Of a stretch of 64,000 nt of DNA, positions 1,564 through 62,494 are shown in pieces. Source of the stretch: Candidatus Omnitrophota bacterium (GTDB lineage Bacteria; Omnitrophota; Gorgyraeia; JABMRN01; RBG-13-46-9); the NCBI GenBank assembly GCA_020346285.1, contig CP070780.1, positions 1,113,021 through 1,177,020 on the forward strand, read 5' to 3'. The notes beneath the pieces were generated by a model. It saw only the letters and a list, made by a program, of their open reading frames with translations, searched no databases and had not been told where the DNA came from. The translations under genes and the position numbers were made by a program. Position 1 is the stretch's first letter. Each line of letters opens with the position of its first letter.

Positions 1564-1602
1564 GATCACAAATCGGATCATTTTTTATAATCAAATTATT
1601 TT
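1564..1602. terminator. possible weak bidirectional terminator region between convergent genes
   Basis: Convergent 3' ends. It contains a tandem direct repeat ATTTTTTATAATC x2 and T-runs, with only a weak GATC...GATC stem. This is a low-confidence call. Confidence 0.2.
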
Positions 1603-3039: not shown

Positions 3040-3775
3040 TCTGCCACGATATTAACAACCGAATGGTAGTGGCGATATATTTCCATCCGCGTTTACAATA
3101 GTCGCCAAGACTGGAGCCTGTCTTTGAATAGCCACCTCTTCTCGAAGCCCAGACATATGGGATTTCAACTACCCGATAGTTTAATTTTAGGACGCGATAA
3201 ATAAAATCGATAAAGTATTCACCATAATCACCCTTCAATTCAATCCTGTCAAAAATTTCTTTACGTGCCACTACAAAACCGCTGGTGTAATCCTTAAATC
3301 TATGGTCAAGGCAGATCTGCGTGAATAAATTCATGAGTCTACTTAATGCTACTGCTAAAGGAGTATTTGCGGGATCCGTTTTTTCGCCTATCCAATTACC
3401 TCCTAAAACAAACCGGGAGCCGACAGCCACGTCATGGCCCGCATTTATAAGGGACAAAAGTACGGGAAGATATTTCGGGGGCATTGAAAAATCACAGTCC
3501 ATCCAACCTATCGCGTCCCCCGAAGCCAACTCTATGCCCCTTTTTATGCTATTTGTCAAACCATGGCTTTCTTGCCTTACTTCAAGCTTCAAAAAGGGAT
3601 ATTTACCAGTTTTAATCATATTTTCAACAATACCAGCCGTGCCGTCAGGGGAATCGTCATCGACGACTATTATTTCATGCACGTCTTGCAGGGCGTCTTT
3701 TATGGCGTCTATTAAGGGGTGAATATTTTCGGCTTCATTTAATGCAGGCAGGATGACTGATAATCGTTTTTTCAT
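3032..3775 (-). CDS. GT2 glycosyltransferase, polyprenyl-phosphate sugar transferase type (DPM1/ArnC-like)
   Basis: 247 aa. LSVILPALNEAENI...IIVVDDDSPDGT is the GT-A DxD-region signature typical of dolichyl/undecaprenyl-phosphate hexose transferases. The start overlaps the DegT stop. Confidence 0.8.
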   Translation of the reverse strand: MKKRLSVILPALNEAENIHPLIDAIKDALQDVHEIIVVDDDSPDGTAGIVENMIKTGKYPFLKLEVRQESHGLTNSIKRGIELASGDAIGWMDCDFSMPPKYLPVLLSLINAGHDVAVGSRFVLGGNWIGEKTDPANTPLAVALSRLMNLFTQICLDHRFKDYTSGFVVARKEIFDRIELKGDYGEYFIDFIYRVLKLNYRVVEIPYVWASRRGGYSKTGSSLGDYCKRGWKYIATTIRLLISWQNE

Positions 3776-10365: not shown

Positions 10366-11241
10366 ATGGGGAAGACTATTATAATAGCGGAAATAGGCGA
10401 GTGTTTTAACGGAGATCTGGAGGTAGCAAAAAAACTAATGTTTGCAGCGAAGAACGCGGGGTGTGATATCGCAAAATTTCAAACACTTGACTATGAGAAT
10501 ATTCAGGAAAATGATCCGGAGTCGGATTGGTTTAAAAAAATTGCGCTTACCGTCGAGAAAATTAATCTCTTGATTAAATATGCCGATGAAACAGGCATAG
10601 ATATCCTCTTTTCGCCAGAAAATTTAAAGACTGCAAAGTGGTTAATAAGGTCAGGTTTGAAAGATGTTAAAATCGCAAGCAACACCATGCAAGATAAGGA
10701 ATTAATCAAGTTTATTAATTGCCATTTTGAACATGTTTTTATGTCAACTGGCATGGCTTTGCTTGAAGAGGTTAAGGATGCTGTGGATAGCTTAAACAAA
10801 GTTAGCGAGCTATATATAATGCATTGTGTTTCCGAGTATCCGACAGGGCCCCTTTTAGAAAAGAGAGGCCTTAAGGCATTATCCCATGATGATGTGAGGC
10901 TTAATATGATGAAAATGCTTATGGAAGAGTTTCCGCGGTACAAGATAGGATATTCGGACCATACGCAAGGGATACTCGCGCCTCTAGCAGCGGTGGCCAT
11001 GGGCGCAAAGGTAATCGAAAAACATATCACCCTTGACAGAAAGACACCTATCGAAAACTTCTTAAAAGGCAAGGAATATCTCGGAACGGACCATATTCTT
11101 TCAATAGAGCCGGATGAACTGAAGGAGATGGTAAGAAGAATACGGGAGATGGAGAGGATGTTCGGCACTAATAAATGGGAACGTTCCGAAGGCGAATATA
11201 TGTTAAGGAATTTTTTGAGAGGACGGTTTGCAAGTAAATAA
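10366..11241 (+). CDS. NeuB-family nonulosonic acid synthase, TIM-barrel catalytic domain only (no SAF/antifreeze-like domain)
   Basis: TIIIAEIGECFNGDLEVAKKLMFAAKNAGCDIAKFQT is the NeuB N-terminal signature. It is only 291 aa and the next gene overlaps its 3' end, so there is no room for the approximately 70-aa C-terminal SAF domain. Confidence 0.75.
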   Translation: MGKTIIIAEIGECFNGDLEVAKKLMFAAKNAGCDIAKFQTLDYENIQENDPESDWFKKIALTVEKINLLIKYADETGIDILFSPENLKTAKWLIRSGLKDVKIASNTMQDKELIKFINCHFEHVFMSTGMALLEEVKDAVDSLNKVSELYIMHCVSEYPTGPLLEKRGLKALSHDDVRLNMMKMLMEEFPRYKIGYSDHTQGILAPLAAVAMGAKVIEKHITLDRKTPIENFLKGKEYLGTDHILSIEPDELKEMVRRIREMERMFGTNKWERSEGEYMLRNFLRGRFASK

Positions 11242-12217
11242 AGTTAAGGTTTTATTCAAAACCAAAGGCGGGCATAAAGAGGGGATGGGGGATATTACCT
11301 CTTCTTTAGCACTGGCGGAGGCATTTAGAGATCAAGGCCATGAAGCAATGTTTATTGTCAATGATAACAAGAGTGCTATAGAGTTAATTTCTCAAAAAGG
11401 TTTCAAATATAAAATGGCCGAGACTCAAACAGAATTAGCGACATCGGTCGGCAAGGAGCCAATAGATATAGCGATTTTAAATCAGTTAAATACGCCCACC
11501 GACGAAACGCAAATCTTCAAGGCTAATTCCAAGATGCTCGTTACAATTGATGATACAGGGGATAGTGCTGAATTAGCCGATATCTCTTTTAACGTTCTTT
11601 ACCCCATAGAAAGCGCTTATGTTGACTTTAAGTACATTGCACTTTTTCCAGTATTCCAGGAGAAACATAATATTTCACGGGTGATAAAAAAAGAGGTGGA
11701 AACAATACTTGTTACCCAGGGAGGAAGCGATACTTATGGTTATACGCCGAAGATCATAAAAGGGTTATACAAAGTGACTCCCGGAATAGTCATAAACGTG
11801 GTACTCGGGCCAAACTTTTCTCACCACCTGCACCTTAAACAAATTCTGGAGGATGCACCGCGGAGTTTTAATATTATAAAAGGAAAAAACGATCTGTCGA
11901 ATTTAATGCTGCAAGCCGACATGGCTATAAGCGGAGGAGGTAATATATTGTTTGAACTGGCGTGTCTTGGCGTTCCGACCATCGTTATATGCGGCGAACG
12001 TTTCGAAGAAAAAACAGCCAAGAGATTACAAGGAGAAGGTTTTGGCATAAATTTGGGTTTCGGAAAATATGTTAAGGAAAAAGATATATGCGGTGCGGTA
12101 ACCGAGCTCATGAATGACACAAAAAAACGCAGGCAAATGAGCGCGAAAGGCATGGATCTTATTGACGGATACGGCGCGACAAGGGTTGCGGAATTAATAA
12201 TAAGACAATTGTTATGA
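11228..12217 (+). CDS. PseG/SpsG-like UDP-sugar hydrolase (GT-B-like)
   Basis: The N-terminus KVLFKTKGGHKEGMGDITSSLALAE.F resembles the G.GH..R...LA motif of PseG. A central ILVTQGGSD motif and a C-terminal ISGGGNILFELACLGVPTIVI are also PseG-like. Confidence 0.55.
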   Translation: MQVNKVKVLFKTKGGHKEGMGDITSSLALAEAFRDQGHEAMFIVNDNKSAIELISQKGFKYKMAETQTELATSVGKEPIDIAILNQLNTPTDETQIFKANSKMLVTIDDTGDSAELADISFNVLYPIESAYVDFKYIALFPVFQEKHNISRVIKKEVETILVTQGGSDTYGYTPKIIKGLYKVTPGIVINVVLGPNFSHHLHLKQILEDAPRSFNIIKGKNDLSNLMLQADMAISGGGNILFELACLGVPTIVICGERFEEKTAKRLQGEGFGINLGFGKYVKEKDICGAVTELMNDTKKRRQMSAKGMDLIDGYGATRVAELIIRQLL

Positions 12218-13275: not shown

Positions 13276-13290
13276 TTGATAGGATATAAA

Positions 13291-14973
13291 ATGAAAAGAT
13301 TTGTGAAGACCACCGGCCAAATGGCGGAAGCGAGGGATTATTGCTGGGAGGTTTATGAGACGGTACTTGCGCAATTATCCGAAAGGCTGAATTCTATCCA
13401 CAATGTTTCCTATCCTGCCAGGTATTGGGCAATTCTTATGGGTTCCTGGCTTTTACACTTTATCGAGGTGCTCTATGATAGATACAAAAGAATAGAAAAA
13501 ACCTTAGAGCTTTTCCCGGATTTTTACACCAGCGCACTCCCGGAGGAAAAGTGTTCGCTTGTATCTTCCGATACGTATGATTTTTTAGTCAGAAAAGTAT
13601 CACGTAACAATTATTATAACCTCAAGTTATTCAGCATGGTAGTGCGCAAGTTGTGTCCCCAACATGTGAGAGATAGGGATGTTACGCCGAAAGTCGAGAC
13701 CGGACCCAAAACACTTTCCTTTAAGCATAGCCTGAAAAGAGAAATATTTTATAAACTTCTCCGACTATTCGATATCTTTATAAAGAATCCCATAGTTTTA
13801 AGCGATATGTATCATTTGGACCCTATGGATATTCTGGCGCTGAAATTTAAGAGTTTGAAGACACTGGTTTTTATGGATTTCGAGCCATTGCTGGACTATG
13901 ATGTTTCAAAGAATTGCTATTCCGACAGCATGAGAAAGAAACTGAAATTGGGGGAAAGTAGTGATAGATTTCAATCATTGCTTTATAAGGTCATTCCCGA
14001 CGCGATACCCACATGCTATCTGGAGAATTACAGAATATACAAAGACAGTATCGGCCGCGCCAAAAACACGATGCCTATAAGTGCAATAGGGTCTGCCATA
14101 GGTTGGTTTTTTAATGAAAGGTTCAAGTTTTTTGCCGCAGAAGCGTCATTAAAAGGAACTCTCCTTATAGAGTTTCAACGCGGAGGCAACTTCGGTTATG
14201 CCGCTGTTCTCTCACATGAGGCAATGACTTTACTGGAAAAAGATATTTTTTACACGTGGGGATGGACCTCGGAAATAAATAACAAAACAAAACCTCTGCC
14301 GTCTCCACACCTTTCTAAATTGAGAGATACCCATTCAACAAAACTCGATAACGTTTTATTTATAGGTGTAGTTATGTCCCGATATCACTATAGATTTCAA
14401 AGCGCGCTCCTATCCGATGATATGCCTGGCTATTTTGAAGACAAGAAGATATTTTTCCAGGCCCTGTCAGAAGAAATTAAAAATAAGGTCCTATACCGCC
14501 CTTATGTAGATGACCGTGGATGGGGGGAGTTGGATAAAGTAAAAAAAGTATGCCCTAAAGCAAAATTTATATCAAAGGGCAAAGCTATAAAATGGATGCA
14601 GAGAGTAAAGTTGGTGGTTATAGACCATCCGCACACAAGCTTTCTTGAGGCCTTGGCTATTAATGTCCCTTGCGTTTTTTATTGGAAACACGATGTTTAT
14701 TCTATACGCCCGGAAGCAGAGAGGTATTTCGAGCTGTTAAGAGATGCCGGCATTGTTTTTAAGGATCCGTTAAGCGCCGCCGAGAAGGTTAAAGAGATAT
14801 TCAATGACCCGATGAATTGGTGGCAGAGTGACGGCGTTCAAAAAGCCCGCTTCGAATTTTGTAAACGATTTGCTTACGCCGAAAAGAATTGGCTAAAGAT
14901 ATGGACAGAAGAATTAAAAAAATTTCATGTAGACATATCCAAGAAAACAAAAGATGCAAAAGCACATTGTTAA
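13291..14973 (+). CDS. large hypothetical protein, TagF-like/CMP-sugar-transferase-like C-terminal domain (putative surface-carbohydrate transferase)
   Basis: About 560 aa. The C-terminal VKLVVIDHPHTSFLEALAINVPCVFYW resembles the donor-binding segment of TagF/capsule transferases and carries an HP dipeptide, as in sialyltransferase HP motifs. It is a paralogue of the ORFs at 19363 and 51158. I prefer the ATG at 13291. Confidence 0.35.
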   Translation: MKRFVKTTGQMAEARDYCWEVYETVLAQLSERLNSIHNVSYPARYWAILMGSWLLHFIEVLYDRYKRIEKTLELFPDFYTSALPEEKCSLVSSDTYDFLVRKVSRNNYYNLKLFSMVVRKLCPQHVRDRDVTPKVETGPKTLSFKHSLKREIFYKLLRLFDIFIKNPIVLSDMYHLDPMDILALKFKSLKTLVFMDFEPLLDYDVSKNCYSDSMRKKLKLGESSDRFQSLLYKVIPDAIPTCYLENYRIYKDSIGRAKNTMPISAIGSAIGWFFNERFKFFAAEASLKGTLLIEFQRGGNFGYAAVLSHEAMTLLEKDIFYTWGWTSEINNKTKPLPSPHLSKLRDTHSTKLDNVLFIGVVMSRYHYRFQSALLSDDMPGYFEDKKIFFQALSEEIKNKVLYRPYVDDRGWGELDKVKKVCPKAKFISKGKAIKWMQRVKLVVIDHPHTSFLEALAINVPCVFYWKHDVYSIRPEAERYFELLRDAGIVFKDPLSAAEKVKEIFNDPMNWWQSDGVQKARFEFCKRFAYAEKNWLKIWTEELKKFHVDISKKTKDAKAHC

Positions 14974-19276: not shown

Positions 19277-19363
19277 AGGGTAAGGCATGAGTTTGATATA
19301 AGAATGTTTGCGGATACCTCAAAATATATAACAGGCCACAATCTTGTTGTAGATGGTGGTTGA
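19277..19363 (+). pseudogene. relic of the C-terminus of a short-chain dehydrogenase (SDR) gene
   Basis: The intergenic frame reads ...MFADTSKYITGHNLVVDGG* and ends at TGA 19361-19363. This is the canonical SDR C-terminal motif (YITGq.l.VDGG), with no upstream body. Confidence 0.5.
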
Positions 19364-21150
19364 TGCAGTATATGAATCTGACTAAAAATAAAATGATTAT
19401 AGCAGTTACAAACTTAAATCTATTTGCAGCTATTAAATTGCTGACTAAAAATAGCGGTTATACCGTTTTGTATTACGAAAGATGTATCCCCGATTTTTTA
19501 TATCATCTATTAGAAAAAAGGCATCACATCAGAGAGTGCAGCAAAAGAAATAACCCCGAATATCTGAAAAATGTAGAAAATGAAAAAGAAACATTTCACC
19601 TGTCATCTAATATAGCAGGCCATGATGACTTGGCAAGTTTCATGGAAGAGATAAGCGATATCTTTTGTATTAAAAAATCACATATTAAATCCACCATGAT
19701 TAAACATTTTGTCAAATTGATAAGAGACGATATAACCCTGATGGGACTGGTAAAAAATAAATATAAGGCTAATGAAAAGGCTGAATATTGGGTGAAAAAT
19801 TACGACATTTTTACCCGACTCTCTAATTTAAACGATAATTTTATTAAAGTAAGTCAACTAAGATTATTTGATATAGCGTATGCGTGTTACATATCTATTT
19901 GGCCTATCCACATTTTCCTGTTTTTTGTTAACGGTATATTTAAAAAACGTAAGAAGCAAAATATAAAAATCGTATTCCAGCAATCATACAAGAAACGTTT
20001 CGGGCATAATCCGGAATTCGAGGCTTTTTTTAGATATTTTAAGACAAGAAACGATGTGGCTTACCATTGTTTTAAAAAGAGCGATGGAATATATCAGGCC
20101 GTGGAATCCTCCGGCAAGCCGGCTTTTACTACTCGAGATTTAAGATTGCCATTATCGGAAGGTTTATTATTAGGTTCTCTTTTATTTAGATTAGTTTTAC
20201 TTTTCCCTAAATATAATCCCCCCCAGAAGACAACGTTTTGGAGGATACTCCTTTGTATTTTCAGGGAGTATGCAGTAACAAAAAGTATATTACTGGAATT
20301 TTCACCCAAATATTTCATTCGCATACGCCAGGAGCTACACGAAAACCACCCCGTAACAACAGGGGTATGCGAACTTCTCGAATGCAGCCACATTGGTTAT
20401 GAACATGGTCCGCCTGTTTATTTTGTCGCAGATTATGCATTAACGGATTTTCATTATTTAGGTGTAATGGGTAAATCATCTATGACTGACATTTATGAAA
20501 ATTGCAAATCGGATATCAAGTGGTCCGTCCTTGGCCCGATAACCGCAGATATATGTTATGACATGCCTGTCCCGAGACGCGACTTTAAAACCATTACTTT
20601 AATAGCAGATTATTATCTTTTGCCCTGGGGAATTTTTCCTTATGAAAGTTATTTCAACGAAGTATTTTTCCCGCTTATAGATTTTATGAAAAATATAAAG
20701 AACGTGAAATTAGTATATAGAATCAAAGCCGTTAAAAAAGAGGGCAAAGCGGCATATGTAAAAAATTTATGCAAACGGCATAATATAAAGTGTGATATTG
20801 AATATTCAGCATCCGGGAAGGATATCTCCGGTTTTTCCTCATATACACTAAGAAAATCTGATTTGGTTGTTGTTCGCGGTACTTCTACAATTGCCTTTGA
20901 GTCTCTTTCACTTGGGAAAAAAGTCATTGTTTTCTGTAACAATCTAATGAAACACCCGCTGGAATCCTTTGCTCCGAAGTTAGCTGTAAGAAGCGGTGAG
21001 GAATTCAACAAAACAATATCCTGGTTATGGGGTGTACCATATCCTGAATATATCAAAAGTATAGAACATATCATCAGGCAGACTTGCAAGAAAGCAAACG
21101 GGAAAATGGTTAAGGAATTTTTTGAGGATTTTGTAGGAATAGATAAATGA
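19363..21150 (+). CDS. large hypothetical protein, TagF-like C-terminal domain (putative surface-carbohydrate transferase); start uncertain
   Basis: About 590 aa. The C-terminal SDLVVVRGTSTIAFESLSLGKKVIVF...HP has the same pattern as the ORFs at 13291 and 51158. Several candidate starts exist (TTG 19360, ATG 19363, 19372, 19393). Confidence 0.35.
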   Translation: MQYMNLTKNKMIIAVTNLNLFAAIKLLTKNSGYTVLYYERCIPDFLYHLLEKRHHIRECSKRNNPEYLKNVENEKETFHLSSNIAGHDDLASFMEEISDIFCIKKSHIKSTMIKHFVKLIRDDITLMGLVKNKYKANEKAEYWVKNYDIFTRLSNLNDNFIKVSQLRLFDIAYACYISIWPIHIFLFFVNGIFKKRKKQNIKIVFQQSYKKRFGHNPEFEAFFRYFKTRNDVAYHCFKKSDGIYQAVESSGKPAFTTRDLRLPLSEGLLLGSLLFRLVLLFPKYNPPQKTTFWRILLCIFREYAVTKSILLEFSPKYFIRIRQELHENHPVTTGVCELLECSHIGYEHGPPVYFVADYALTDFHYLGVMGKSSMTDIYENCKSDIKWSVLGPITADICYDMPVPRRDFKTITLIADYYLLPWGIFPYESYFNEVFFPLIDFMKNIKNVKLVYRIKAVKKEGKAAYVKNLCKRHNIKCDIEYSASGKDISGFSSYTLRKSDLVVVRGTSTIAFESLSLGKKVIVFCNNLMKHPLESFAPKLAVRSGEEFNKTISWLWGVPYPEYIKSIEHIIRQTCKKANGKMVKEFFEDFVGIDK

Positions 21151-22549: not shown

Positions 22550-22590
22550 AAAGCAGAGATTTTTAATTGAAAAATTGGAGGGAAAAGTAT

Positions 22591-23562
22591 ATGGAACTCA
22601 AAGAAGCTGTTAAAAACAGAGTTGCTTTAGGTAAAAGGCCAAGATTGATTGAAAATGTATTGCTAATTGAGGGAATTGCCAGGGCAGGGAAATTTCTGCT
22701 TGCGAATTGCCTCTGTGCCATAAATGATGTAGAACATACCTGCTCCAACGGCCTTTTAGACAATATTCCTTTTATGGTAAAATTCAAACTGCTCACGCCA
22801 GAGGCAGCCGAAGCCCTTATTCAGAACATAATAGATAACTCGGGGTACGATATCATGATAGGGAGAAATCTCAATTTTCGATACGATGACAAGAGCTGTA
22901 TTTATAACTCCCCAAGGCTAAAAGAATATCTGGACAGGAGCCTAAACTCTGACCGAGATGTTATTGTAGAACAGATTAAAAATAAAAGGCGTTATTTTAT
23001 GCATATTGTCCACCAGGGTTTTCCGAATATCGAAATATTCCTTCGGATGTATTCTAAGATTAAGGTCATTAGAATTGAAAGACATCCCGTTGATTTAGTT
23101 TATTCATGGTTTCAGAGGGGGTTTGGCCGGCGATTGGGCCGAGATGCCCGATTATTTATTATACCGATCCAAGGAATAAAAGGGCCTATACCGTGGTTTG
23201 CACATGAATGGGCCGAGGATTATGAAAATTCATCCGAGATGGATAGAGTAATCAGATTCCTTTACTATATAAATGAAAAAAGCAAGGAAGCATATGTTAA
23301 TCTAAACATGGAAGATAAAAAAAAGATACATACCGTGTCGTACGAGCGCTTACTTACAGAGACAGACGAAGAAATGAAAAAAATAAGCATTTTTCTGGAT
23401 AAAAAAATATTGCCAGGGATCGAGCTAGTCAAGGCGCGCGAAAGAATCCCGGCACCTAATCCTGCATTGGTAAGGAATAAAAAAATGAATTTTATTAAAA
23501 AACAGACTACACCGAAAATCTTTTCCGCACTTATGGCGATGGAAAATGGATACGAGAAATAG
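22591..23562 (+). CDS. sulfotransferase-family protein (P-loop, PAPS-dependent type)
   Basis: IEGIARAGKFLL resembles the 5'-PSB P-loop (PK.G(T/S)T.L). IRIERHPVDLVYSW resembles the 3'-PB motif (R(D/N)P.D...S.Y). I prefer the ATG at 22591 (GGAGGG RBS). Confidence 0.55.
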   Translation: MELKEAVKNRVALGKRPRLIENVLLIEGIARAGKFLLANCLCAINDVEHTCSNGLLDNIPFMVKFKLLTPEAAEALIQNIIDNSGYDIMIGRNLNFRYDDKSCIYNSPRLKEYLDRSLNSDRDVIVEQIKNKRRYFMHIVHQGFPNIEIFLRMYSKIKVIRIERHPVDLVYSWFQRGFGRRLGRDARLFIIPIQGIKGPIPWFAHEWAEDYENSSEMDRVIRFLYYINEKSKEAYVNLNMEDKKKIHTVSYERLLTETDEEMKKISIFLDKKILPGIELVKARERIPAPNPALVRNKKMNFIKKQTTPKIFSALMAMENGYEK

Positions 23563-25762
23563 AAAAAAAATAAAGATAATCACGACACTAGGACCATCGA
23601 CGAACACCGAGAAGGATTTAAGAAACATAAAGGACAAAGGCGTTGATTTTGTACGAATCAATATGTCCCACTCCAATCTCAACGATTTAAAATATTTCAT
23701 AGATATTTCAAAGAAGATAGACATACCTTTTATCCTGGATACAGAGGGCTCGCAAATAAGGGCAGTTCAACTTGGCAGGGAAAAAATCGAATTTAAGGAA
23801 GGGGATATAATAAAAATTTATAATCGAACCATAGCAGAAAACAGGGAAAAGATATGCCTACAGCCGGGGTCTATTGTAGGGCAGTTGAAGAAAGGAGATC
23901 TGATATTCGTTGATTTTAATACGTTGGTCCTTAGGGTATCAGATATTTCTATGATTACCGACGGCTATATTTCCGCGATAGTTGTTACCAACGGAATGCT
24001 CGGAAACAACAAATCTGCTGTTATTGTTTCGGGAGAACAAAAACACTTTGGATTGCCCGTTTTAACCGAAAAAGACAGAAAATCTATTCAATTGGCTTTG
24101 AAAGAAGGGATAGGGCATATTGCCGTTTCTTTTGTAAGAAGGGGGAGGGACCTTGATGAGGTAAGAAAAACGACAAATAACACAATGCGTATCATCGCAA
24201 AAATAGAATCAAAAGAATCTTTGGAAAATATAGATGAAATAATTGAAAAAACAGACGCACTTTTGATTGACAGAGGAGATCTTGGTAAAGAGATTCCGAT
24301 TGAAAGAATACCCTTTATCCAGAAGGCTGTATTAAAAAAAGCGCACGAAAGACAAAAGCCGGTATTTATCGCAACAAACCTTCTCGAATCTATGGTTGAG
24401 AAGAAAAAGCCTACAAGGGCGGAAGTCAATGATGTTATAAATACCATTTTGGACGGGGCAGATGGCTTGGTTTTATCAGCCGAAACCGCTATCGGAAAAC
24501 ACCCCATGGGATGCATCAATATACTGAACAGGCTTATTAAATATTCAGATTCCGCAAGAAATCTTAACTATGTTAGTCGTTTTTCCGATTTTAGCACTGT
24601 TTCATTAATAAAACCGCATGGAGGCAGATTAATCGAAAGATTCGCCGATAAATTACCCGGCGATTCAGATAAATTGGTAAAAATAAAACTATCCGAAGAA
24701 CAGCAAATGGATGTTGAGCAGATTGCTGTCGGGGCATTTAGCCCTTTGGAAGGCTTTATGTGCAGAAATGATTTTCAGGGTGTCCTCGACAATATGCGGC
24801 TTGTAAGCGGGGTTGTATGGCCGATTCCAATCGTGCTTGATATTTCAAAAGAAGAGGCGAAAAAGATTTCTATCGATAATGAGGTAGCCTTAATCGGTGA
24901 TAAAGACGAAATTATGGCCATCCTTCATGTAAGGGATAAATACGATTTTGACAAAAAAGAGATAATAAATAAGTTATACTGCACGGACGACAAGAGGCAT
25001 CCCGGTGTAAAAATGGCAATGAAAATGAAGCCGATCTTAGTGGGCGGCGAAATTGATTTGGTAAAGAGAAGAGAGTCCGAATACAAGGAATATGAGCTTA
25101 CCCCAAGGCAGGTGCGAAAACTGTTCGAAGATCGAAATTGGATGAAGATTGCCGGTTTTCATACAAGAAACGCAATACACAGGGTGCATGAATTTATACA
25201 ATTAAAGGCGTTGGAAAAAGCGCATTGCGATGGGCTATTTATTCACCCTGTTATTGGAAAAAAGAAACAAGGCGATTTTAATATCAAATACATAATAGAG
25301 GCTTATAAAAAAATGATGAAAGATTTTTATCCAAAAGATAGCGTTGTCTTCGCAACATTTTCCACCTTTTCGCGATACGCGGGGCCTAGAGAAGCTATAT
25401 TTACTGCCTTATGCAGAAAGAATTTTGGATGCAGCCATTTTATTGTAGGAAGGGACCATACGGGTGTCGCGAATTATTATCACCCAAAGGCATCCCAACA
25501 GATTTTTGACAGATTTCCCGATTTGGAAATAAAACCCATAAAATTTGATAAAGTGTTTTATTCGAATAAACTTAACAAATATATTCATGGAAGTGACATT
25601 TGTAAAGAGGGGGATTTAGGAGAAGTGCATATAAACGCGACACAGGCAAGAAAGATGTTACAGGCCCTTGAAATGCCACCGGATTGGTTTATGAGGCCCG
25701 AAATAGCTTTAATAATTTTAAACGGACTAAAGAACAAGGAGGAAGTGTTTGTCAAAGAGTAA
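23546..25762 (+). CDS. fusion protein: pyruvate-kinase-like N-terminal domain + full ATP sulfurylase (sulfate adenylyltransferase)
   Basis: The first approximately 330 aa match pyruvate kinase blocks (IKIITTLGPST..E.L....KGVDFVRINMSHS; IAKIESKESLENIDEI...DALLIDRGDLG.EIP.ERIP..QK....K......PVFIATNLLESMV..KKPTRAEVNDV.N.ILDGADGLVLSAETA.GKHP). The remaining approximately 400 aa match ATP sulfurylase: the PUA-like segment HGGRLIER...LSEEQ..DVEQIAVGAFSPLEGFM, the HxxH motif GFHTRNAIHRVHE, and VGRDHTGV (GRDHAG). Confidence 0.8.
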   Translation: MDTRNRKKIKIITTLGPSTNTEKDLRNIKDKGVDFVRINMSHSNLNDLKYFIDISKKIDIPFILDTEGSQIRAVQLGREKIEFKEGDIIKIYNRTIAENREKICLQPGSIVGQLKKGDLIFVDFNTLVLRVSDISMITDGYISAIVVTNGMLGNNKSAVIVSGEQKHFGLPVLTEKDRKSIQLALKEGIGHIAVSFVRRGRDLDEVRKTTNNTMRIIAKIESKESLENIDEIIEKTDALLIDRGDLGKEIPIERIPFIQKAVLKKAHERQKPVFIATNLLESMVEKKKPTRAEVNDVINTILDGADGLVLSAETAIGKHPMGCINILNRLIKYSDSARNLNYVSRFSDFSTVSLIKPHGGRLIERFADKLPGDSDKLVKIKLSEEQQMDVEQIAVGAFSPLEGFMCRNDFQGVLDNMRLVSGVVWPIPIVLDISKEEAKKISIDNEVALIGDKDEIMAILHVRDKYDFDKKEIINKLYCTDDKRHPGVKMAMKMKPILVGGEIDLVKRRESEYKEYELTPRQVRKLFEDRNWMKIAGFHTRNAIHRVHEFIQLKALEKAHCDGLFIHPVIGKKKQGDFNIKYIIEAYKKMMKDFYPKDSVVFATFSTFSRYAGPREAIFTALCRKNFGCSHFIVGRDHTGVANYYHPKASQQIFDRFPDLEIKPIKFDKVFYSNKLNKYIHGSDICKEGDLGEVHINATQARKMLQALEMPPDWFMRPEIALIILNGLKNKEEVFVKE

Positions 25763-27542: not shown

Positions 27543-28214
27543 ATGAGTAGAGATTTAATTATAGCGGCTAAATGCGCCCCCCGGGAAGGGCATTTACGGG
27601 ATATTAAAAAAGCAGGATTGCAAGCAGTAGAGCTATATCTCTCGGAAGAGATTATGGAAAATCTGCCTAAGGTCATTGGACTGTGTAAAAAATTTCCATT
27701 TAGATATGCCGTTCACGCCCCTAATGCCGTATATAATCCGCGTAAATTAAGAAAATTGACAGAAGCGATCAATGCCGAAATAGCCGTTTTTCATAATGTT
27801 TATTGGGAGGATGAATGGAAGAGGGTCGCTAAAGCTTTTAAAGGCGTCAAGACTAAACTTTGCGTTGAAAATACATCTTCCACCCATGACTCGGTGAAAT
27901 TTATGAGAAGATATGGGTGGGGTAGGGCCCTGGATTTGGAACACGCGCAAATGGGATCTGCCGGTGTCTATGAAGAAGAGTTTATTACTGTTATGAAAGA
28001 GGCTGCCCATATCCACTTAACCGGTTACACCCATGGTTCGCAATTATGGCACACGCATATCCATCATTCACCGAGGCATAATTCATATTTATTGGATTTA
28101 TTAAGAAAAGCAAGATATTCAGGTTTTGTTGTCTCCGAAGCAAAAAAGTCACTCCAGACTTACGCAGAGTTTAAAAAGTTGAAAGAGTTTTATCAAAAAT
28201 GGAGAAATAAGTGA
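27543..28214 (+). CDS. xylose-isomerase-like TIM-barrel protein (sugar phosphate isomerase/epimerase family)
   Basis: 223 aa. The AVHAPN, ALDLEHAQ and HIHLTGY...HTHIHH segments resemble the metal-binding His/Glu/Asp pattern of the AP_endonuc_2/xylose-isomerase-like fold. This is a moderate-confidence call. Confidence 0.4.
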   Translation: MSRDLIIAAKCAPREGHLRDIKKAGLQAVELYLSEEIMENLPKVIGLCKKFPFRYAVHAPNAVYNPRKLRKLTEAINAEIAVFHNVYWEDEWKRVAKAFKGVKTKLCVENTSSTHDSVKFMRRYGWGRALDLEHAQMGSAGVYEEEFITVMKEAAHIHLTGYTHGSQLWHTHIHHSPRHNSYLLDLLRKARYSGFVVSEAKKSLQTYAEFKKLKEFYQKWRNK

Positions 28215-42474: not shown

Positions 42475-43230
42475 ATGAAAGACAAAATGAGTGATTTTAG
42501 GAGCAGCAGCCCACAGGAGCTTGCTATCAGAAGAAAATTCTTGGAACATTATAAAAAAAGTCCCATTCCTGATGATCAGCTCTTTGTAAACCTCGGGCTT
42601 TTTCTGAACACCAAAAATTTATCTCGAATCTTATTTATGAATGATATATACAAACAAATTATTGATGTTCAAGGGATTATTGTTGAATTTGGTACAAGAT
42701 GGGGTCCAAACCTGTCACTTTTTGCTGCTTTGCGAGGAATTTATGAGCCATATAACATACAGAGAAAAATAGTTGGATTTGATACGTTTGAAGGATTTCC
42801 AGGCCTATCAGAAAAAGACAGCTCTAGTGATATGATGAAAATAGGTAATCTTTCCTGTTCAGAAGGATATGTTGATTATCTTACAAAGGTGATGGAATTC
42901 CAAGAAGCTGATAATCCTGTCTCACACATCAAGAAATTTGAGATAAGAAAGGGAGATGCAAACATTGAAGTGGTGAAATATCTTGAAGAAAACCCGGAAA
43001 CGATTATTGCTTTGGCTTTTTTTGATTTCGACATTTACGAACCGACTAAAAATTGTTTGCAAGCTATAAAACCCCACTTGGTAAAAGGGAGTTTATTGTG
43101 TTTTGATGAATTGAATGCCCATAGTGCCCCGGGAGAAACTATAGCATTGAAAGAGGTATACGGACTTAATAATATAAAGTTACGACGGCCCCGCTACACC
43201 ACGAGAGTATCGTACTTTATTATAGAATAA
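42475..43230 (+). CDS. TylF/MycF-family (macrocin-O-methyltransferase-like) SAM-dependent sugar O-methyltransferase
   Basis: QGIIVEFGTRWGPNLSLFAAL...KIVGFDTFEGFPG matches the TylF family core (G.(I/V)VE.G(V/T).(R/W)G.S......GRtvw.yDsFeGlP). Confidence 0.75.
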   Translation: MKDKMSDFRSSSPQELAIRRKFLEHYKKSPIPDDQLFVNLGLFLNTKNLSRILFMNDIYKQIIDVQGIIVEFGTRWGPNLSLFAALRGIYEPYNIQRKIVGFDTFEGFPGLSEKDSSSDMMKIGNLSCSEGYVDYLTKVMEFQEADNPVSHIKKFEIRKGDANIEVVKYLEENPETIIALAFFDFDIYEPTKNCLQAIKPHLVKGSLLCFDELNAHSAPGETIALKEVYGLNNIKLRRPRYTTRVSYFIIE

Positions 43231-43238
43231 AGCGTTAC

Positions 43239-43332
43239 TATAACCCTGGGCGCTTACAGGGACGAACGGAGAGAAAGGAAACGATTGTCACTTTATGACC
43301 GCCGAATATCTAAATTTGAAGGAGAAAAACAG
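43239..43332 (+). pseudogene. relic of a methyltransferase 3' end (homologous to the end of the gene at 29073-29759), internally deleted
   Basis: 43239-43278 matches 29579-29618, and 43288-43332 matches 29711-29755, both at high identity. About 90 nt of intervening sequence is missing and no upstream gene body is present. Confidence 0.6.
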
Positions 43333-43383
43333 ATGAAAAGCCGGGATTTTTTACGAAAAATATTGGCAATGTTGACCATTCCC
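43333..43383 (+). repeat. 51-nt direct repeat (right copy), part of the functional gene start
   Basis: ATGAAAAGCCGGGATTTTTTACGAAAAATATTGGCAATGTTGACCATTCCC is the partner of 42393-42443. A related start (ATGAAAAATCAGGATTTTTTAATAAAAATATTGG) occurs at 29756. Confidence 0.7.
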
Positions 43384-44505
43384 GCAGTACTTGTAATACG
43401 GATATTGCGGCCGTTCGTGCTAATCCGTTTTGGAAAACTCCTTAGCGATAGAATAGGTCATTTTGCCATCAATACAGAAGAATATCTGTGCGAGAAGGAT
43501 GCGGGCATGTACGGCCGGCGAATCTTTGATATTTTTTATACCGTTAAACCAATTTGCAATCAACAGTTGAAAAAGATGTGGAGCCGCATACTGCACATTT
43601 CCAAGATTGCGCATTTTTTTGATATTGCCAATAGATGCTTACCGGGATATGAGGACCATTCGGTTTCCTTGCTAGGGCTTATGGATGTTCATGGTCTCTT
43701 TGTGCGTACCGCGCCGCATCTTTCTTTTACCCCAAAAGAGGAACGTATGGGGCTTGATGGGCTCCGGAAGATGGGCATACCTGAAGGCGTTCCTTTTGTC
43801 TGTTTTCATGCACGCAATCAGGCTTACCTGGAAACCGTGTATCCGAAAGCGGATTGGCACAGTCACAGCCACCGTAATTCGGACATTTATAATTATATCC
43901 CGGCAGTAGAAAAATTAGTAAATAGGGGGTATTTTGCTATTAGGATGGGTGCTGTTGTAAAAAAGAAATTGAATAACAATAACCCAAGGATTATCGATTA
44001 TGCCGTAAATCACAGGACAGATTTTCTTGACATATACCTCTTGGCTAAATGCAAATTTCTTATTAATAACGAGGCAGGTATTCATGGCGTATCCGTGATT
44101 TTCAGGAGACCGGTGGTTGAGGCAAATATCGTCCACATTGACCCCCCAAATCTCATCAAAGGGGAAAATAGTTTATTTATCTTAAAAAAATTATGGTCGC
44201 GAAGAAAAGGTCGCTTTTTGACTTTTAAAGAAATACTCAACACCGGCATAGGAAAATTTTCTACAGCCCAACAATATGAAAAGTCCCAAATAGAGTTAAT
44301 AGAGAACACACCGGAAGAAATCAGCGCTGTTTCCATGGAGATGGATGAGCGATTGAAGAATACATGGCAGACGACCGAAAAAGATGAGCAGTTGCAGCAG
44401 CAATTTTGGGCAATACTTAAGCCAATCTGCCCTAATGAAAATGGAATAATTTTTCCACGACTTGGCGCAGAATTTTTGCGCCAGAATAAAGAATTGTTAA
44501 AGTAG
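43333..44505 (+). CDS. hypothetical protein (about 390 aa), possibly a glycosyl/sugar-modifying transferase; no recognisable motif
   Basis: The ORF has a consistent reading frame. I prefer the ATG at 43333 (AAGGAG RBS) over the caller's TTG at 43285. Function cannot be assigned from sequence alone. Confidence 0.4.
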   Translation: MKSRDFLRKILAMLTIPAVLVIRILRPFVLIRFGKLLSDRIGHFAINTEEYLCEKDAGMYGRRIFDIFYTVKPICNQQLKKMWSRILHISKIAHFFDIANRCLPGYEDHSVSLLGLMDVHGLFVRTAPHLSFTPKEERMGLDGLRKMGIPEGVPFVCFHARNQAYLETVYPKADWHSHSHRNSDIYNYIPAVEKLVNRGYFAIRMGAVVKKKLNNNNPRIIDYAVNHRTDFLDIYLLAKCKFLINNEAGIHGVSVIFRRPVVEANIVHIDPPNLIKGENSLFILKKLWSRRKGRFLTFKEILNTGIGKFSTAQQYEKSQIELIENTPEEISAVSMEMDERLKNTWQTTEKDEQLQQQFWAILKPICPNENGIIFPRLGAEFLRQNKELLK

Positions 44506-44519
44506 GAAGGAATATAAGA

Positions 44520-46280
44520 TTGAAGGCTTTAACTTTTATTCGTGATATCTTCAGAAAATATCCCACATTAGTTACAGTTACAACGGTACTGGTAGTTTTT
44601 GTTAGTGTAGTTGAGGCGGCTTGTCTTTTTACCGTTGGCCCGCTTGTTGATGTTTTAATTCATCCTGCTCTCGAGAACATCAGCCCTCTTACCCAAAAGG
44701 TAATGAACGTTATGCAATTTTTTGATATTCCACTGGTATTAAAAAGCTGCTTAATTGTTTTTATTGTATTTGTCATTTTAAGCAGCGCTTTGCGTATCTT
44801 GGTGCGGTATTCTATTTTGAGTATTAAATATATCGTGCTTCGCGATCTTACGGTTGGAACATTTAGTGATTTTTTCCACGCGAGGTGGTATTTTTTTAGC
44901 AGCAGTGGACAGGGCAAACTTTTAAATACTTTCCTGCGCGAACTTAATATTGTAGCCGAGGCCTTCAGGGCAGTAGCATATTTTTTTGCGGGGACCTTGC
45001 AATTAATTTTTTATCTGGCAATTCCGTTTTATATCTCCTGGCAAGTGACGAGCATTAGCCTTATGAGCGCAATTTTACTTTCCTGCCCCTTTATTTTACT
45101 CGGGAAAATCTGCTATTGGTTAGGTAAATTGAATACCGAGACAAGCAATCGGCTAGCCGCCCTCATACAGGAGAACTTTACATTAGCCAAAGTTGTTCTG
45201 GGCTTTGGCAAGCAAGAAAAAAGCATTGATAATCTTGCTTCTACTTTTGATGTTCATCGCAAAATAACCGTTAAGAGCCAGACAATTAACTTAGCCATAC
45301 CAATTCTTTATCGCCCGCTTGGCGTGGCGGTATTAGCTGCGGCCATTATTTCGGCGCAATGGTTCAAAATTCCCATTTCAGAAATGGCAGTATTGCTATT
45401 GGCATTGCTGCAGGTTGTTGTCTCTATAGGTAATTTGATAATGCGAAAAAATTCACTGGATAACTCCCTTCCCAGCTATGAACAGGTCAATGATTTACAA
45501 CGTAAAGCAAAAGAATGGAAGCAAGCCACGGGCGGTAAAATATTTTCGGGGTTTAATAAAGAAATAATTATTGAAGGTGTTTCGTTTGCCTACCCGGGGC
45601 ATGAGCCGGTGTTAAAGGACATTAATGTTAAAATTCCGAAGGGAAAAATGATTGCCTTTGTTGGTAAATCAGGCGCGGGAAAATCAACGCTGATTGACAT
45701 GATTATGGGATTTAACGAATTTATAACCGGGCGAATTACATTTGATGGCGTGAATATCGAAGAATTTAACGTCAGTTCATATCGTAAGCGCATCGGTTAC
45801 GTACCTCAGGACAGCATTCTTTTTAATATGACTATTAGAGATAACTTGCTCTGGGCCAAGGAAGATGCTACCCAAGAGGAGATCAAGTATGCTTGCCGCC
45901 AGGCAAACGCAGATGAGTTTATAGAAGCATTTTCGCATGGGTACGATACATTAGTGGGGGACCGTGGTATTCGCCTGTCAGGTGGCCAGTGCCAAAGGGT
46001 AGCATTGGCCAGAGCGATATTAAGGAGACCCGAGCTTCTTATTCTGGATGAAGCTACCAGTTCTCTGGATAGCCGTTCCGAACGATTGATCCAAGAGGCC
46101 ACTGAAAATATTGCCAAGGAAACCACGGTTATTGTCATTGCGCATCGCCTTTCCACGATTGTAAATGCGGATTATATGTATGTAATGGAAAAAGGAAGGA
46201 TAGTCGAACAAGGGATATATTCTGACCTGGTTAAAATGAACGGCCATTTTAACCGTATGGTAAAACTTCAGGTATTGTAA
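44520..46280 (+). CDS. ABC transporter, fused permease/ATPase exporter (MsbA/PglK-like)
   Basis: The N-terminal half has six predicted TM segments. The ATPase has Walker A (GKSGAGKST), the ABC signature (LSGGQCQRVALARA) and Walker B (ILILDEATSSLD). Confidence 0.85.
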   Translation: MKALTFIRDIFRKYPTLVTVTTVLVVFVSVVEAACLFTVGPLVDVLIHPALENISPLTQKVMNVMQFFDIPLVLKSCLIVFIVFVILSSALRILVRYSILSIKYIVLRDLTVGTFSDFFHARWYFFSSSGQGKLLNTFLRELNIVAEAFRAVAYFFAGTLQLIFYLAIPFYISWQVTSISLMSAILLSCPFILLGKICYWLGKLNTETSNRLAALIQENFTLAKVVLGFGKQEKSIDNLASTFDVHRKITVKSQTINLAIPILYRPLGVAVLAAAIISAQWFKIPISEMAVLLLALLQVVVSIGNLIMRKNSLDNSLPSYEQVNDLQRKAKEWKQATGGKIFSGFNKEIIIEGVSFAYPGHEPVLKDINVKIPKGKMIAFVGKSGAGKSTLIDMIMGFNEFITGRITFDGVNIEEFNVSSYRKRIGYVPQDSILFNMTIRDNLLWAKEDATQEEIKYACRQANADEFIEAFSHGYDTLVGDRGIRLSGGQCQRVALARAILRRPELLILDEATSSLDSRSERLIQEATENIAKETTVIVIAHRLSTIVNADYMYVMEKGRIVEQGIYSDLVKMNGHFNRMVKLQVL

Positions 46281-61255: not shown

Positions 61256-62494
61256 ATGATAGATCGTTTAAAGAGGGTTTGTTTGAAAGAAATTGATATA
61301 GATTATAATGGGCTGTTTAGACACCTCGAAGATTTAAGGAAAGTTTTGCTTGTTACGACTGGCAGGACTGGCTCAGATTTTTTTCAAAGTCTTTTAGACG
61401 GTCATTCGGAAATTTTGCAGTTTACAGGTATGTGGAAGCATCATTGGTGGTGGAAGCAAGCGAAATGCAAAGAAAATTTACCAGACTTAATTAATGAATT
61501 TATCTGGTATACATGTAGTTTTACTTTTTGTAATCATATTGCAAAATTTAAGTCTTGCTATAATAAGCAGGAACGCTGGGGTCAACTGGGAGCTAATAAA
61601 AACGAATCTTTCGAAGTAGATATGGACACCTTTAAGAATCATATGTTGAACATCTTAACCGATAAGGAGTCGAATAGTAAAAATTTCTTTTTAGCAGTTA
61701 ATTTGGCTTACGGTCTTACTACAGGAGTTGACATTAAGAAAACAAAAATAATTTTTTATCACATTCACCATTTCGAGAGATTGAAAGATTTTAAGGAAGA
61801 TTTCCCAGATTTTGACATAATTTGCACAGTAAGAGAACCACGGAATACTTTGGTCTCAGGCATAGAGCATTGGAAAAAATATGATATTAACACATATAAT
61901 TCCAGGTTTTTCTATCAGCTTTTAAAGAGAATTTTTGAAGAGTCTGAACCAATACTGCAAGATACGGGAAACATCAAGACCTTAAAATTGGAAGACTTAC
62001 ATTTATTCTCTAAAGAAACGCTAAGTGAATTTTGTCAGATGTATAATTTGGAGCTTGAGAACTGCATGTTCGAATCTTCTTATCACGGCAAAAAATGGTG
62101 GGGTGATGTTTTATCCGGCAAATATTTAGATGGCTTTAACAAAGATATTAATGAGCGGAAATGGAGAGATAAATTATTTTTTTATGACAATCTTCTAATA
62201 GAATTTATTTTGGAAGATAGATTAAGACATTATGGATATTTTATTGAGAATAAAATATCAAGAATATATTTAATCCTCATTTGGTTTTTAGTCTTTTTGC
62301 CAATGAAATATGAATTAAAGATTTTGGCTTACAATTTCAGAAGTAATAGAACCGCAAACGCCAAACTTTTAGTATTATGCAAGGGCTGGGGGTTTTATAT
62401 ACTGAGAATTCTGCTATATTTTAAATTTATTTTGAAAAAAGTTACTAAAAAAATTTTCTTGGCAGATTTTTTTATTCAAGAAAAATATCGTTAA
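61256..62494 (+). CDS. hypothetical protein with sulfotransferase-like P-loop and hydrophobic C-terminus
   Basis: VLLVTTGRTGSDFF resembles the 5'-PSB P-loop. TVREPRNTLVSGIEHW resembles the 3'-PB motif. The C-terminal approximately 60 aa are hydrophobic (ISRIYLILIWFLVFLPM...ILRILLYF). This is a weak assignment. Confidence 0.35.
   Translation: MIDRLKRVCLKEIDIDYNGLFRHLEDLRKVLLVTTGRTGSDFFQSLLDGHSEILQFTGMWKHHWWWKQAKCKENLPDLINEFIWYTCSFTFCNHIAKFKSCYNKQERWGQLGANKNESFEVDMDTFKNHMLNILTDKESNSKNFFLAVNLAYGLTTGVDIKKTKIIFYHIHHFERLKDFKEDFPDFDIICTVREPRNTLVSGIEHWKKYDINTYNSRFFYQLLKRIFEESEPILQDTGNIKTLKLEDLHLFSKETLSEFCQMYNLELENCMFESSYHGKKWWGDVLSGKYLDGFNKDINERKWRDKLFFYDNLLIEFILEDRLRHYGYFIENKISRIYLILIWFLVFLPMKYELKILAYNFRSNRTANAKLLVLCKGWGFYILRILLYFKFILKKVTKKIFLADFFIQEKYR

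Follow-up and report, generated by a model that had tools for sequence, protein, structure and literature searches.

The locus described here raises the question of why a pyruvate kinase (PK) barrel should be joined to an ATP sulfurylase (ATPS) on one polypeptide. Sulfate activation is among the most thermodynamically unfavourable steps of core metabolism, and the known solutions are GTP hydrolysis, as in CysDN, fusion to a pyrophosphatase, and fusion to an APS kinase. In the 64-kb stretch of DNA analysed here (the window), a single gene carries a PK region and a sulfurylase in the following arrangement:

23546..25762, + strand: PK-ATP sulfurylase fusion gene (738 aa; single ORF; Pfam and NCBIfam domain matches)
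23564..24511, + strand: pyruvate kinase barrel, A-domain TIM barrel with inserted B (lid) domain (aa 7-322; PF00224, E 1e-73)
24560..24601, + strand: inter-domain linker (aa 339-352, 14 residues; AlphaFold pLDDT < 50)
24608..25066, + strand: PUA-like N-terminal domain of ATP sulfurylase (aa 355-507; PF14306, PUA_2, E 2e-48, 164 bits)
25088..25720, + strand: ATP sulfurylase catalytic domain (aa 515-725; PF01747, E 1e-71, 241 bits)

The 738 codons form one frame without interruption, and the N-terminus of the product matches the family consensus of a 50-sequence alignment. A first, sequence-only reading had described this frame as a PK region followed by a complete ATP sulfurylase, and the Pfam searches bear it out for three of the four models it had named: PF00224 matches over model positions 2-326 of 328, with about aa 70-165 forming the B domain, and PF14306 and PF01747 match as well, whereas the PK_C domain PF02887 is absent. 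Neither an APS kinase domain (PF01583) nor a pyrophosphatase domain was found by Pfam in the fusion protein. The catalytic motifs picked out in that reading are indeed present, HTRNAIHRVH at aa 539-548, within FHTRNAIHRVH at aa 538-548, and GRDHTGV at aa 635-641. The AlphaFold model is confident, with a pLDDT of 87.5 and a pTM of 0.84; values below 50 occur only at aa 1-5 and in the linker, which is disordered and varies in length from 16 to about 31 residues among members of the fusion family. A fold search of the PDB returned no chain spanning both halves.

Could two separate genes have been joined by a frameshift or a misassembly? We found nothing in favour of such an artefact, and it is refuted by the family-wide sharing of the junction. 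This recurs in 80 independent genomes and in upwards of 120 protein clusters, and when sequences are clustered at 50% identity, about 130 cluster representatives span it in one stretch. The gene is thus confirmed as a genuine PK-ATP sulfurylase fusion. More than 120 full-length homologues, 55-72% identical to the window protein, have the same architecture, while an exact-sequence look-up of the window protein itself gave no record; the 80 species genomes all belong to uncultured organisms, and the hosts include DPANN archaea, CPR bacteria, Chloroflexota and Acidobacteriota. Throughout the family, the partner of the PK module is always a sulfurylase and the domain order is fixed. Further domains may be added: the relative nearest to the window protein, with 72% identity, is a PK-ATPS-APSK triple fusion, one locus (L068) encodes a four-part PK-ATPS-APSK-CysQ protein, and one variant (P0016) has an extra N-terminal NTP-transferase. 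A viral origin was considered and rejected, as IMG/VR holds no relative of the fusion protein. The architecture had been thought undescribed, and our literature searches likewise found no paper describing a PK-ATP sulfurylase fusion, but it is not rare, being present in hundreds of public sequences labelled either 'sulfate adenylyltransferase' or 'pyruvate kinase'. The fusion family is therefore large, uncharacterised and widespread in uncultured microbes.

The sulfurylase half looks catalytically complete. It passes the NCBIfam cut-offs (PRK04149, 422 bits against 387; TIGR00339, 351 against 323) and has the full PUA-like and catalytic domains of Sat-type homo-oligomeric ATP sulfurylases such as those of Methanothermococcus thermolithotrophicus (8A8D) and Thermus thermophilus (1V47). 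The former is the closest solved structure (E 4e-98, 41% identity, TM 0.93) and shares the HxxH and GRD motifs, and neither H545-R-V-H548 nor the GRD loop G635-R-D637 varies among 50 members of the family. Unlike these enzymes, the fusion bears a 340-aa N-terminal PK module, and it has a histidine, H539, where canonical sulfurylases have the Gln of QxRN/QTRN, with the Arg and Asn of the motif kept. This replacement occurs in nearly all members of the family, FH[TS]RN being found in 162 of the 172 full-length proteins and FQTRN in only one; in yeast ATPS, the Gln contacts the sulfate group.

For the PK half, the best PDB sequence matches are the enzyme of G. stearothermophilus (2e28) and E. coli PykF, with which it shares the A-domain barrel and the B lid at about 33-35% identity, and all of the catalytic, Mg2+, PEP and nucleotide-phosphate ligands of these enzymes are kept. 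R37, N39, S41, D65, T66, R72, K156, K219, E221, D245, T277 and E313 align to PDB pyruvate kinases; among them are the Mg2+ ligands E221 and D245, the catalytic K219, the Arg/Asn/Ser/Asp/Thr set that forms the phosphate and K+ site, and the Thr that donates the proton. In an alignment of 50 diverse fusions, D65, T66, R72, K156, K219, E221, D245, T290-E293 and E313 are invariant, and R37, N39, S41, H42 and T277 are at least 90% conserved. What the fusion lacks is the C-terminal domain of PykF and 2E28, which is regulatory and allosteric and normally builds the active tetramer. Its absence explains why TIGR01064 scores just under its cut-off, at 298 (298.1) bits against 306 (306.4), with the other NCBIfam PK models far under theirs; the Foldseek TM of about 0.63 against PykF is normalised to the target, which includes the C-domain. 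The fusion also differs by family-specific changes adjoining the active site, namely DTEGSQIR for DTKGPEIR and KIE[C/S/T] for KIEN. At the positions equivalent to 113, 114 and 117 of rabbit PK it has T66, E67 and Q70, and at position 120 it has A or T; this T/E/Q signature matches neither the K+-dependent class (T/K/E) nor the K+-independent class (L/Q/K) of pyruvate kinases (PMC8835810).

The missing C-domain and the family-specific substitutions near the K+/nucleotide site would both fit a module that has become a non-catalytic or sensory scaffold, standing in for an oligomerisation or regulatory domain and perhaps sensing PEP or the adenylate state. Fungal sulfurylases, two of which (1i2d and 1m8p) are among the PDB matches of the sulfurylase half, provide a precedent, given that a degenerate APS-kinase-like domain serves them as a regulator. 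Degenerate regulatory domains, however, normally lose their catalytic residues, whereas the residues of PK chemistry (E221, D245, K219, R37/R72/K156 and T277) are invariant or at least 90% conserved here, and the B-domain lid is kept. Moreover, mean pairwise identity within the family is 0.68-0.72 for the PK A-domain and 0.69 for the sulfurylase catalytic domain, which indicates that both halves are under equal constraint. We therefore regard a scaffold as unlikely; judged by its residues, the PK module looks catalytically complete despite the absent C-domain.

If both halves are enzymes, the genomic surroundings should be informative about the pathway that they serve. The window contains two sulfotransferase-like genes, both in the same cluster:

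22567..23562, + strand: sulfotransferase-like gene (PF00685, 31.7 bits against a cut-off of 22)
61256..62494, + strand: second sulfotransferase-like gene (PF13469, 27.4 bits against a cut-off of 27)

The fusion gene had been placed directly downstream of a sulfotransferase-like gene, and this is correct: the two overlap by 17 nt, the first gene reaching its stop codon within the start of the fusion gene. As read from the sequence, its product has a 5'-PSB-like 'GIARAGK' and a 3'-phosphate-binding 'RHPVDLVYS' (R-x7-S), while the second product has 'TGRTGS' and 'REPRNTLVS', so that the PAPS 3'-phosphate motif is kept in both. Similar surroundings were found for the relatives, for which we counted neighbours at 89 loci including duplicates, or 84 non-redundant loci. 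The 89 loci comprise 23 PK-ATPS-APSK triple fusions, 33 in which the APS kinase has a gene of its own, mostly 0-4 nt downstream, and a remainder with none. Counted over the non-redundant set and including AAA_33-type kinases, APS kinase is fused or nearby in 57 of 84 loci, a sulfotransferase is present in 34 and a CysQ-like phosphatase gene in 15, and 70 of the 84 have at least one of the three within 8 kb. The adjoining sulfotransferases belong to different families in different loci. These counts show that the fusion is genomically tied to PAPS-pathway genes, and the same link, which holds across the relatives, supports the earlier suggestion that a glycan is provided with its own source of sulfo donor. 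They also speak against a sulfurylase for sulfate reduction rather than sulfation: sulfotransferases, APS kinases and CysQ are common, and no CysH-like reductase was found in the 89 loci by a seed-based search of limited sensitivity. Nothing was found in favour of sulfate reduction, and taken together with the artefact discussed above, it has a negligible probability.

The surroundings bear equally on whether the fused PK is simply the ordinary glycolytic enzyme, or one that converts NDPs to NTPs in general for the many nucleotidyltransferases of the glycan cluster, and is co-expressed with the sulfurylase without direct kinetic coupling. PK has broad NDP specificity, many members are annotated as 'pyruvate kinase' by JGI, reduced genomes are found in many of the hosts, which are CPR or DPANN organisms, and the N-terminal NTP-transferase of P0016 would suit such a role. 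Nevertheless, contigs of 3.8-10.4 Mb from Latescibacterota, Acidobacteriota and Ardenticatenaceae carry the fusion too, and such hosts would be expected to have a canonical PK; the genes stand in glycan or sulfation clusters and not among glycolytic genes; and the sulfurylase is the constant partner in a fixed order. We consider this role quite improbable.

A further possibility arises from what the window lacks. No APS kinase was found in its 64 kb, a tblastn search with the kinase domain of the triple fusion P0001 giving only noise (best match E 0.25, within a methyltransferase), and a Walker-A scan returned only an ABC transporter and a 100-aa antisense ORF at 20097-20396, leaving no other candidate P-loop kinase. 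About a third of the relatives' loci (about 27 of 84) are likewise without a nearby APS kinase. Given that both window sulfotransferases keep the PAPS motif and that the T/E/Q signature fits neither known PK class, the PK-like module might have acquired a new acceptor; if, for instance, it phosphorylated APS with PEP, the 738-aa protein would by itself be a complete PAPS synthase. Yet APS kinase is fused or adjacent in two thirds of the loci, and the closest relative is itself an APS kinase triple fusion, so that PK co-exists with APS kinase and does not replace it. In addition, the PK residues that bind the ADP phosphate are all kept and nothing suggests a site for the ribose 3'-OH. A new acceptor is thus very improbable.

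The reading that we prefer is that the protein probably helps to supply PAPS for the sulfation of glycans, with its PK module turning ADP into ATP at the expense of PEP. The C-terminal half would act as a Sat-type ATP sulfurylase (ATP + sulfate -> APS + PPi), and the APS would feed PAPS-dependent sulfotransferases decorating a cell-surface glycan, with the necessary APS kinase of this organism presumably encoded outside the window. The N-terminal A+B module, having lost the C-domain, would convert PEP and ADP, and possibly other NDPs, so that ATP is regenerated right beside the sulfate-activating sites. Removal of ADP would free both APS kinase and the sulfurylase from inhibition, and sulfate activation would gain the large drop in free energy that comes with PEP hydrolysis, for a predicted net reaction of sulfate + ATP + PEP -> PAPS + PPi + pyruvate. 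We infer that both activities are present and coupled.

APS kinase produces ADP, and two published observations concern the effects of this product. In vitro, PAPS synthesis by PAPSS1 nearly fails without ATP regeneration by PK/PEP, owing to an E-ADP-APS dead-end complex (PMC9885120), and ADP binds the ATP sulfurylase site almost identically to APS (PMC3734648). As both the product of one enzyme and an APS mimic in the other, ADP is a molecule whose removal should relieve inhibition. Of the two effects that the sequence-only reading had offered for the kinase, local regeneration of ATP is plausible, but a pull on the sulfurylase equilibrium does not hold for PK by itself: it acts on ADP, does not remove PPi and cannot pull the sulfurylase step directly. 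Several points count against the proposed function: no pyrophosphatase was found when the 89 loci were searched with an E. coli Ppa seed, at limited sensitivity, residues next to the PK active site are altered, the C-domain is absent and H539 replaces the Gln. Moreover, where no APS kinase is nearby, as in the window and about a third of the loci, the source of ADP would not be local.

Comparison with known systems places the fusion among enzymes that carry sulfate-activation steps on one chain, such as the bifunctional ATPS-APS kinases of Aquifex aeolicus (2GKS) and the metazoan PAPS synthases. The same C-terminal APS kinase is carried by 23 relatives, in contrast to the window protein, which has none. 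To our knowledge, none of the described ATPS-APS kinase enzymes has a PK module. The GTPase-coupled CysDN is another helper-coupled sulfurylase. Helper-fused forms are also known, namely the ATPS-pyrophosphatase of stramenopiles and haptophytes and ATPS-APR (PMC2275785), and the catalogue of ATPS fusions in that paper includes no PK fusion, pyruvate being mentioned only with sulfite reductase. As in all these systems, an unfavourable sulfurylase reaction would be tied to an enzyme that provides driving force or removes product, but the proposed helper is a PEP-using, ATP-regenerating kinase that acts on ADP and not on PPi or GTP. The closest parallel in activities is man-made: PAPS cascades combine sulfurylase, APS kinase and PK with PEP, the stated purpose of the latter being to avoid ADP inhibition of APS kinase (PMC9885120). 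Those cascades are engineered mixes of separate enzymes, whereas here the fusion is natural.

We lean slightly towards seeing in this family a natural 'self-regenerating' sulfate-activating system, with the ATP-recycling module hard-wired into the biosynthetic enzyme. If so, the known solutions to the energetics of sulfate activation would gain a fourth, a conserved fusion to a PEP-using kinase, and sulfation would be tied directly to the pool of glycolytic PEP in organisms with a limited energy metabolism, many of them CPR or DPANN. The family suggests, too, that these uncultured lineages commonly bear sulfated glycans on their surface. Furthermore, the PK-ATPS-APSK and PK-ATPS-APSK-CysQ fusions are candidates for a cheap enzymatic supply of PAPS, which is now assembled from separate enzymes.

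Some minor observations concern the window as a whole. It contains no tRNAs and no housekeeping genes. Shine-Dalgarno-like motifs precede 26 of its 51 starts, a share that does not tell bacteria from archaea. A scan for promoters and terminators around the fusion gene gave nothing above chance, which is consistent with a long operon. Genes for TPP enzymes adjoin the fusion gene; a supply of pyruvate to them was considered and rejected, as these neighbours are not conserved across the fusion family.

The PK barrel and the ATPS domains lie on a single 738-codon frame, so the sequence-only reading was right to place both enzymes on one ORF, and the two motifs that it quoted, HTRNAIHRVH and GRDHTGV, are present in the protein.

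23546-25762, + strand: PK-ATP sulfurylase fusion gene, one open frame, 738 codons
aa 7-322: pyruvate kinase barrel, complete (Pfam, model positions 2-326 of 328, E 1e-73)
aa 355-507: PUA-like domain (Pfam, E 2e-48)
aa 515-725: ATP-sulfurylase catalytic domain (Pfam, E 1e-71)

The C-terminal half scores above the curated NCBIfam thresholds for sulfate adenylyltransferases (PRK04149, 422 vs 387; TIGR00339, 351 vs 323), and by sequence the protein can be classed as a Sat-type ATP sulfurylase, except for a Gln-to-His change. The N-terminal half falls slightly short of the NCBIfam PK equivalog cut-off (298 vs 306) because the PK C-terminal domain, for which the Pfam search gave no match, is absent. 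Given this absence and the score, the protein is not a full pyruvate kinase family member; its PK module probably works like pyruvate kinase. In the AlphaFold model (pLDDT 87.5, pTM 0.84), disorder is confined to aa 1-5 and the linker (339-352), and the high pTM suggests a defined mutual arrangement of the two halves. PDB fold and sequence searches found no solved structure covering both; the sulfurylase half matches the M. thermolithotrophicus ATPS (TM 0.93), and PykF-type structures are the matches for the PK half.

Among 5.8 billion proteins searched, at least 120 full-length homologues with 55-72% identity were retrieved, all combining PK, PUA_2 and ATP-sulfurylase domains, and a subset of those listed (~920-940 aa) carries an extra C-terminal APS kinase. 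A junction-only query of 131 aa retrieved 148 cluster representatives among 1.84 billion at E <= 1e-10, about 130 of which cover the junction in one stretch, and scanning a single genome for each species yielded 80 loci, all encoding the fusion (46-68% identity). A misassembly or frameshift artefact is thus ruled out by the recurrence of the same architecture and junction across many proteins and genomes. All 80 hosts are metagenome-assembled or single-cell genomes and, by record titles, among which some bin labels may be unreliable, they include archaea (Pace-, Woese- and Nanoarchaeia of the DPANN) and bacteria (many Patescibacteria/CPR lineages, Chloroflexota/Anaerolineae, Acidobacteriota, Planctomycetota, Gemmatimonadota, Latescibacterota, Myxococcota, Omnitrophota, Nitrospinia and others). 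No viral relatives were found in IMG/VR.

The fusion partners described for sulfurylases are APS kinase, pyrophosphatase and APS reductase (PMC2275785); none is a PK. The earlier suggestion that the architecture is undescribed holds for the literature, where our searches found no published description, but not for sequence databases, where it is abundant under differing names ("sulfate adenylyltransferase" at NCBI, "pyruvate kinase" at JGI). Thus, the architecture is apparently uncharacterised, and we place it among the helper-fused sulfate-activating enzymes, with PK as the proposed helper. GTPase-coupled CysDN is a further helper-coupled sulfurylase. Such an enzyme would surprise a sulfur-metabolism specialist and is easy to test; it bears on CPR and DPANN physiology and has practical appeal for making PAPS enzymatically.

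We aligned the window protein to solved pyruvate kinases, and 50 diverse fusions for conservation; rabbit-muscle positions were assigned by us on the first of these alignments. In the window protein, the phosphate and K+ site (R37, N39, S41, H42, D65, T66), the nucleotide-phosphate ligands (R72, K156), the catalytic lysine (K219) and the Mg2+ ligands (E221, D245) are all retained, and so are T277, the PTRAE segment and E313. Across the 50 fusions most of this set does not vary, and R37, N39, S41, H42 and T277 reach 90% conservation or better. Pairwise identities average 0.68-0.72 in the PK A-domain, 0.51 in the B lid, 0.56 in the PUA domain and 0.69 in the sulfurylase catalytic domain. The PK module is thus as constrained as the sulfurylase, which speaks against decay of the domain; a regulatory or structural role for it is unlikely.

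Family-wide signatures adjoin both active sites at aa 65-72, 219-222 and 538-542: DTEGSQ[IV]R (DTKGPEIR in canonical PKs), KIE[C/S/T] (canonically KIEN) and, in the sulfurylase, FH[TS]RN, which replaces FQTRN in 162 of 172 full-length members. DTEGSQIR, KIE[C/S/T] and FHTRN set the family apart from all characterised classes of PK and sulfurylase. At rabbit positions 113/114/117 the family has T/E/Q, which fits neither class of PK, K+-dependent (T/K/E) or K+-independent (L/Q/K) (PMC8835810). That the module acts on a new acceptor, such as APS, is very improbable.

The sulfotransferase-like gene placed immediately upstream by the sequence-only reading is indeed there, overlapping the fusion's start ATG by 17 nt, and a TPP enzyme gene starts within about 20 nt 3' of the fusion. 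Given this spacing, and with no promoter or terminator signals above chance around the gene, the fusion lies inside a long operon. Essentially all of the window is taken up by a single co-directional glycan cluster (about 58 kb; 1603-63316), with two NeuB genes, two CMP-type cytidylyltransferases, a UDP-GlcNAc 2-epimerase, at least six DegT aminotransferases, two ALS-like TPP enzymes, two split transketolase/E1-like pairs, glycosyltransferases, an ABC exporter and an unusually large number (ten) of radical-SAM genes.

1603-3039 (-), 21161, 38376, 49656, 54952: B12-binding radical-SAM genes (n=5)
12214, 15015, 41265, 46280: SPASM-type radical-SAM genes (n=4)
37302: tenth radical-SAM gene
22567-23562: sulfotransferase-like gene 1
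61256-62494: sulfotransferase-like gene 2

This content suggests that the cluster makes heavily modified nonulosonic-acid-type sugars. Three large ORFs in the operon have no Pfam match (13276-14973, 19360-21150 and 51158-53128; 565, 596 and 656 aa) and are candidate new glycan-processing enzymes or polymerases; 11228-12217, 27543-28214 and 42475-43230 belong to the same group. As read from their sequences, both sulfotransferase-like genes keep a P-loop-like 5'-phosphosulfate motif and R-x7-S, which binds the PAPS 3'-phosphate in canonical sulfotransferases; since both PAPS-binding motifs are kept, the enzymes should need PAPS. A tblastn search and a Walker-A scan of the 64-kb window turned up neither an APS kinase nor any other P-loop kinase.

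In the relatives, an APS kinase is often fused or adjacent. Triple fusions (PK-ATPS-APSK, ending in APS kinase) account for 23 of 89 loci, and in 33 of 89 the APS kinase is a gene of its own, as a rule encoded on the same strand and starting 0-4 nt downstream. Among 84 non-redundant loci, an APS kinase occurs in 57, a sulfotransferase in 34, a CysQ-like gene in 15, and at least one of the three in 70. The neighbouring sulfotransferases belong to unrelated families in different loci, which strengthens the functional link. For instance, P0001, the closest relative among the matches listed (72% identity), is a triple fusion whose start is overlapped by a sulfotransferase gene; P0050 has an APS kinase-CysQ fusion 4 nt downstream; and downstream of P0003 lie genes for an AAA_33 kinase and a sulfotransferase and a CysQ-like gene. 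At locus L068 (ORF 3-3227, 5' end cut), PK, PUA, ATPS, APSK and inositol monophosphatase/CysQ form one chain, the whole PAPS cycle except the sulfotransferase. Apart from these, the genes most often seen nearby are those for nonulosonic acids and glycans, flippases and CDP-alcohol phosphatidyltransferases. Neither a pyrophosphatase (E. coli Ppa as seed) nor a CysH-like reductase was found in any of the 89 loci, both searches being of limited sensitivity. With these neighbours, an ordinary housekeeping PK or general NTP supplier uncoupled from the sulfurylase is quite unlikely.

It is almost certain that the sulfurylase half produces APS so that a surface polymer can be sulfated by PAPS-dependent enzymes, and the best-supported reading of the PK half is ATP regeneration (PEP + ADP -> pyruvate + ATP). 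ADP sits in the sulfurylase site almost exactly as APS does (PMC3734648), it traps APS kinase with APS as a dead-end E-ADP-APS complex, and in an engineered cascade PAPSS1 formed almost no PAPS unless a PK/PEP module was present (PMC9885120). The fused PK would play that module's role in vivo, consuming the ADP released by APS kinase and adding the free energy of PEP; overall, sulfate + ATP + PEP would give PAPS + PPi + pyruvate. In the window organism, APS kinase would be encoded elsewhere in the genome. The PK-ATPS-APSK-CysQ architecture fits this by-product-clearing logic, as PK would clear ADP and CysQ would clear PAP. The earlier suggestion that PK could pull the sulfurylase equilibrium does not hold for the sulfurylase step itself, because PK leaves PPi untouched.

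Several further associations were observed. The P0001 locus and the window (43285-46280) share a pair comprising a 406-420-aa unknown protein and an ABC exporter. The Pfam-less 406-aa window protein is 54% identical to its L001 counterpart; the pair adjoins the fusion in P0001 and lies directly downstream of it in L001 (11538-14582) and L005, which are among the closest relatives, while in the window additional biosynthetic genes put about 17.5 kb between the two. Ahead of PK-ATPS, P0229 (1151 aa) carries a type I phosphodiesterase/nucleotide pyrophosphatase domain (PF01663) and P0016 (1019 aa) a MobA/IspD-like nucleotidyltransferase. A protein of ~950-990 aa with cytidylyltransferase-like, PPDK_N and PEP-utilizer domains (L003 13388-16354, L007 4599-7448 and 10 other loci) recurs near the fusion, accompanied by a class-I glutamine amidotransferase and a CDP-alcohol phosphatidyltransferase, and is another PEP-linked enzyme. 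In four Chloroflexota loci (L024 9794-11602, L031 12069-13781, L038 4476-6248, L041 2819-4516), PK-ATPS adjoins a bifunctional ATPS-APS kinase gene, which gives two neighbouring sulfurylase domains; the one in this second protein spans just positions 2-152 of the 212-position model and is possibly non-catalytic. Finally, an AAA_33-type P-loop kinase (~183 aa, not detected by PF01583) replaces APS kinase directly downstream of the fusion in L003 (6728-7279), L019 (10265-10849) and L015 (6027-6473), and may be a non-orthologous APS kinase.
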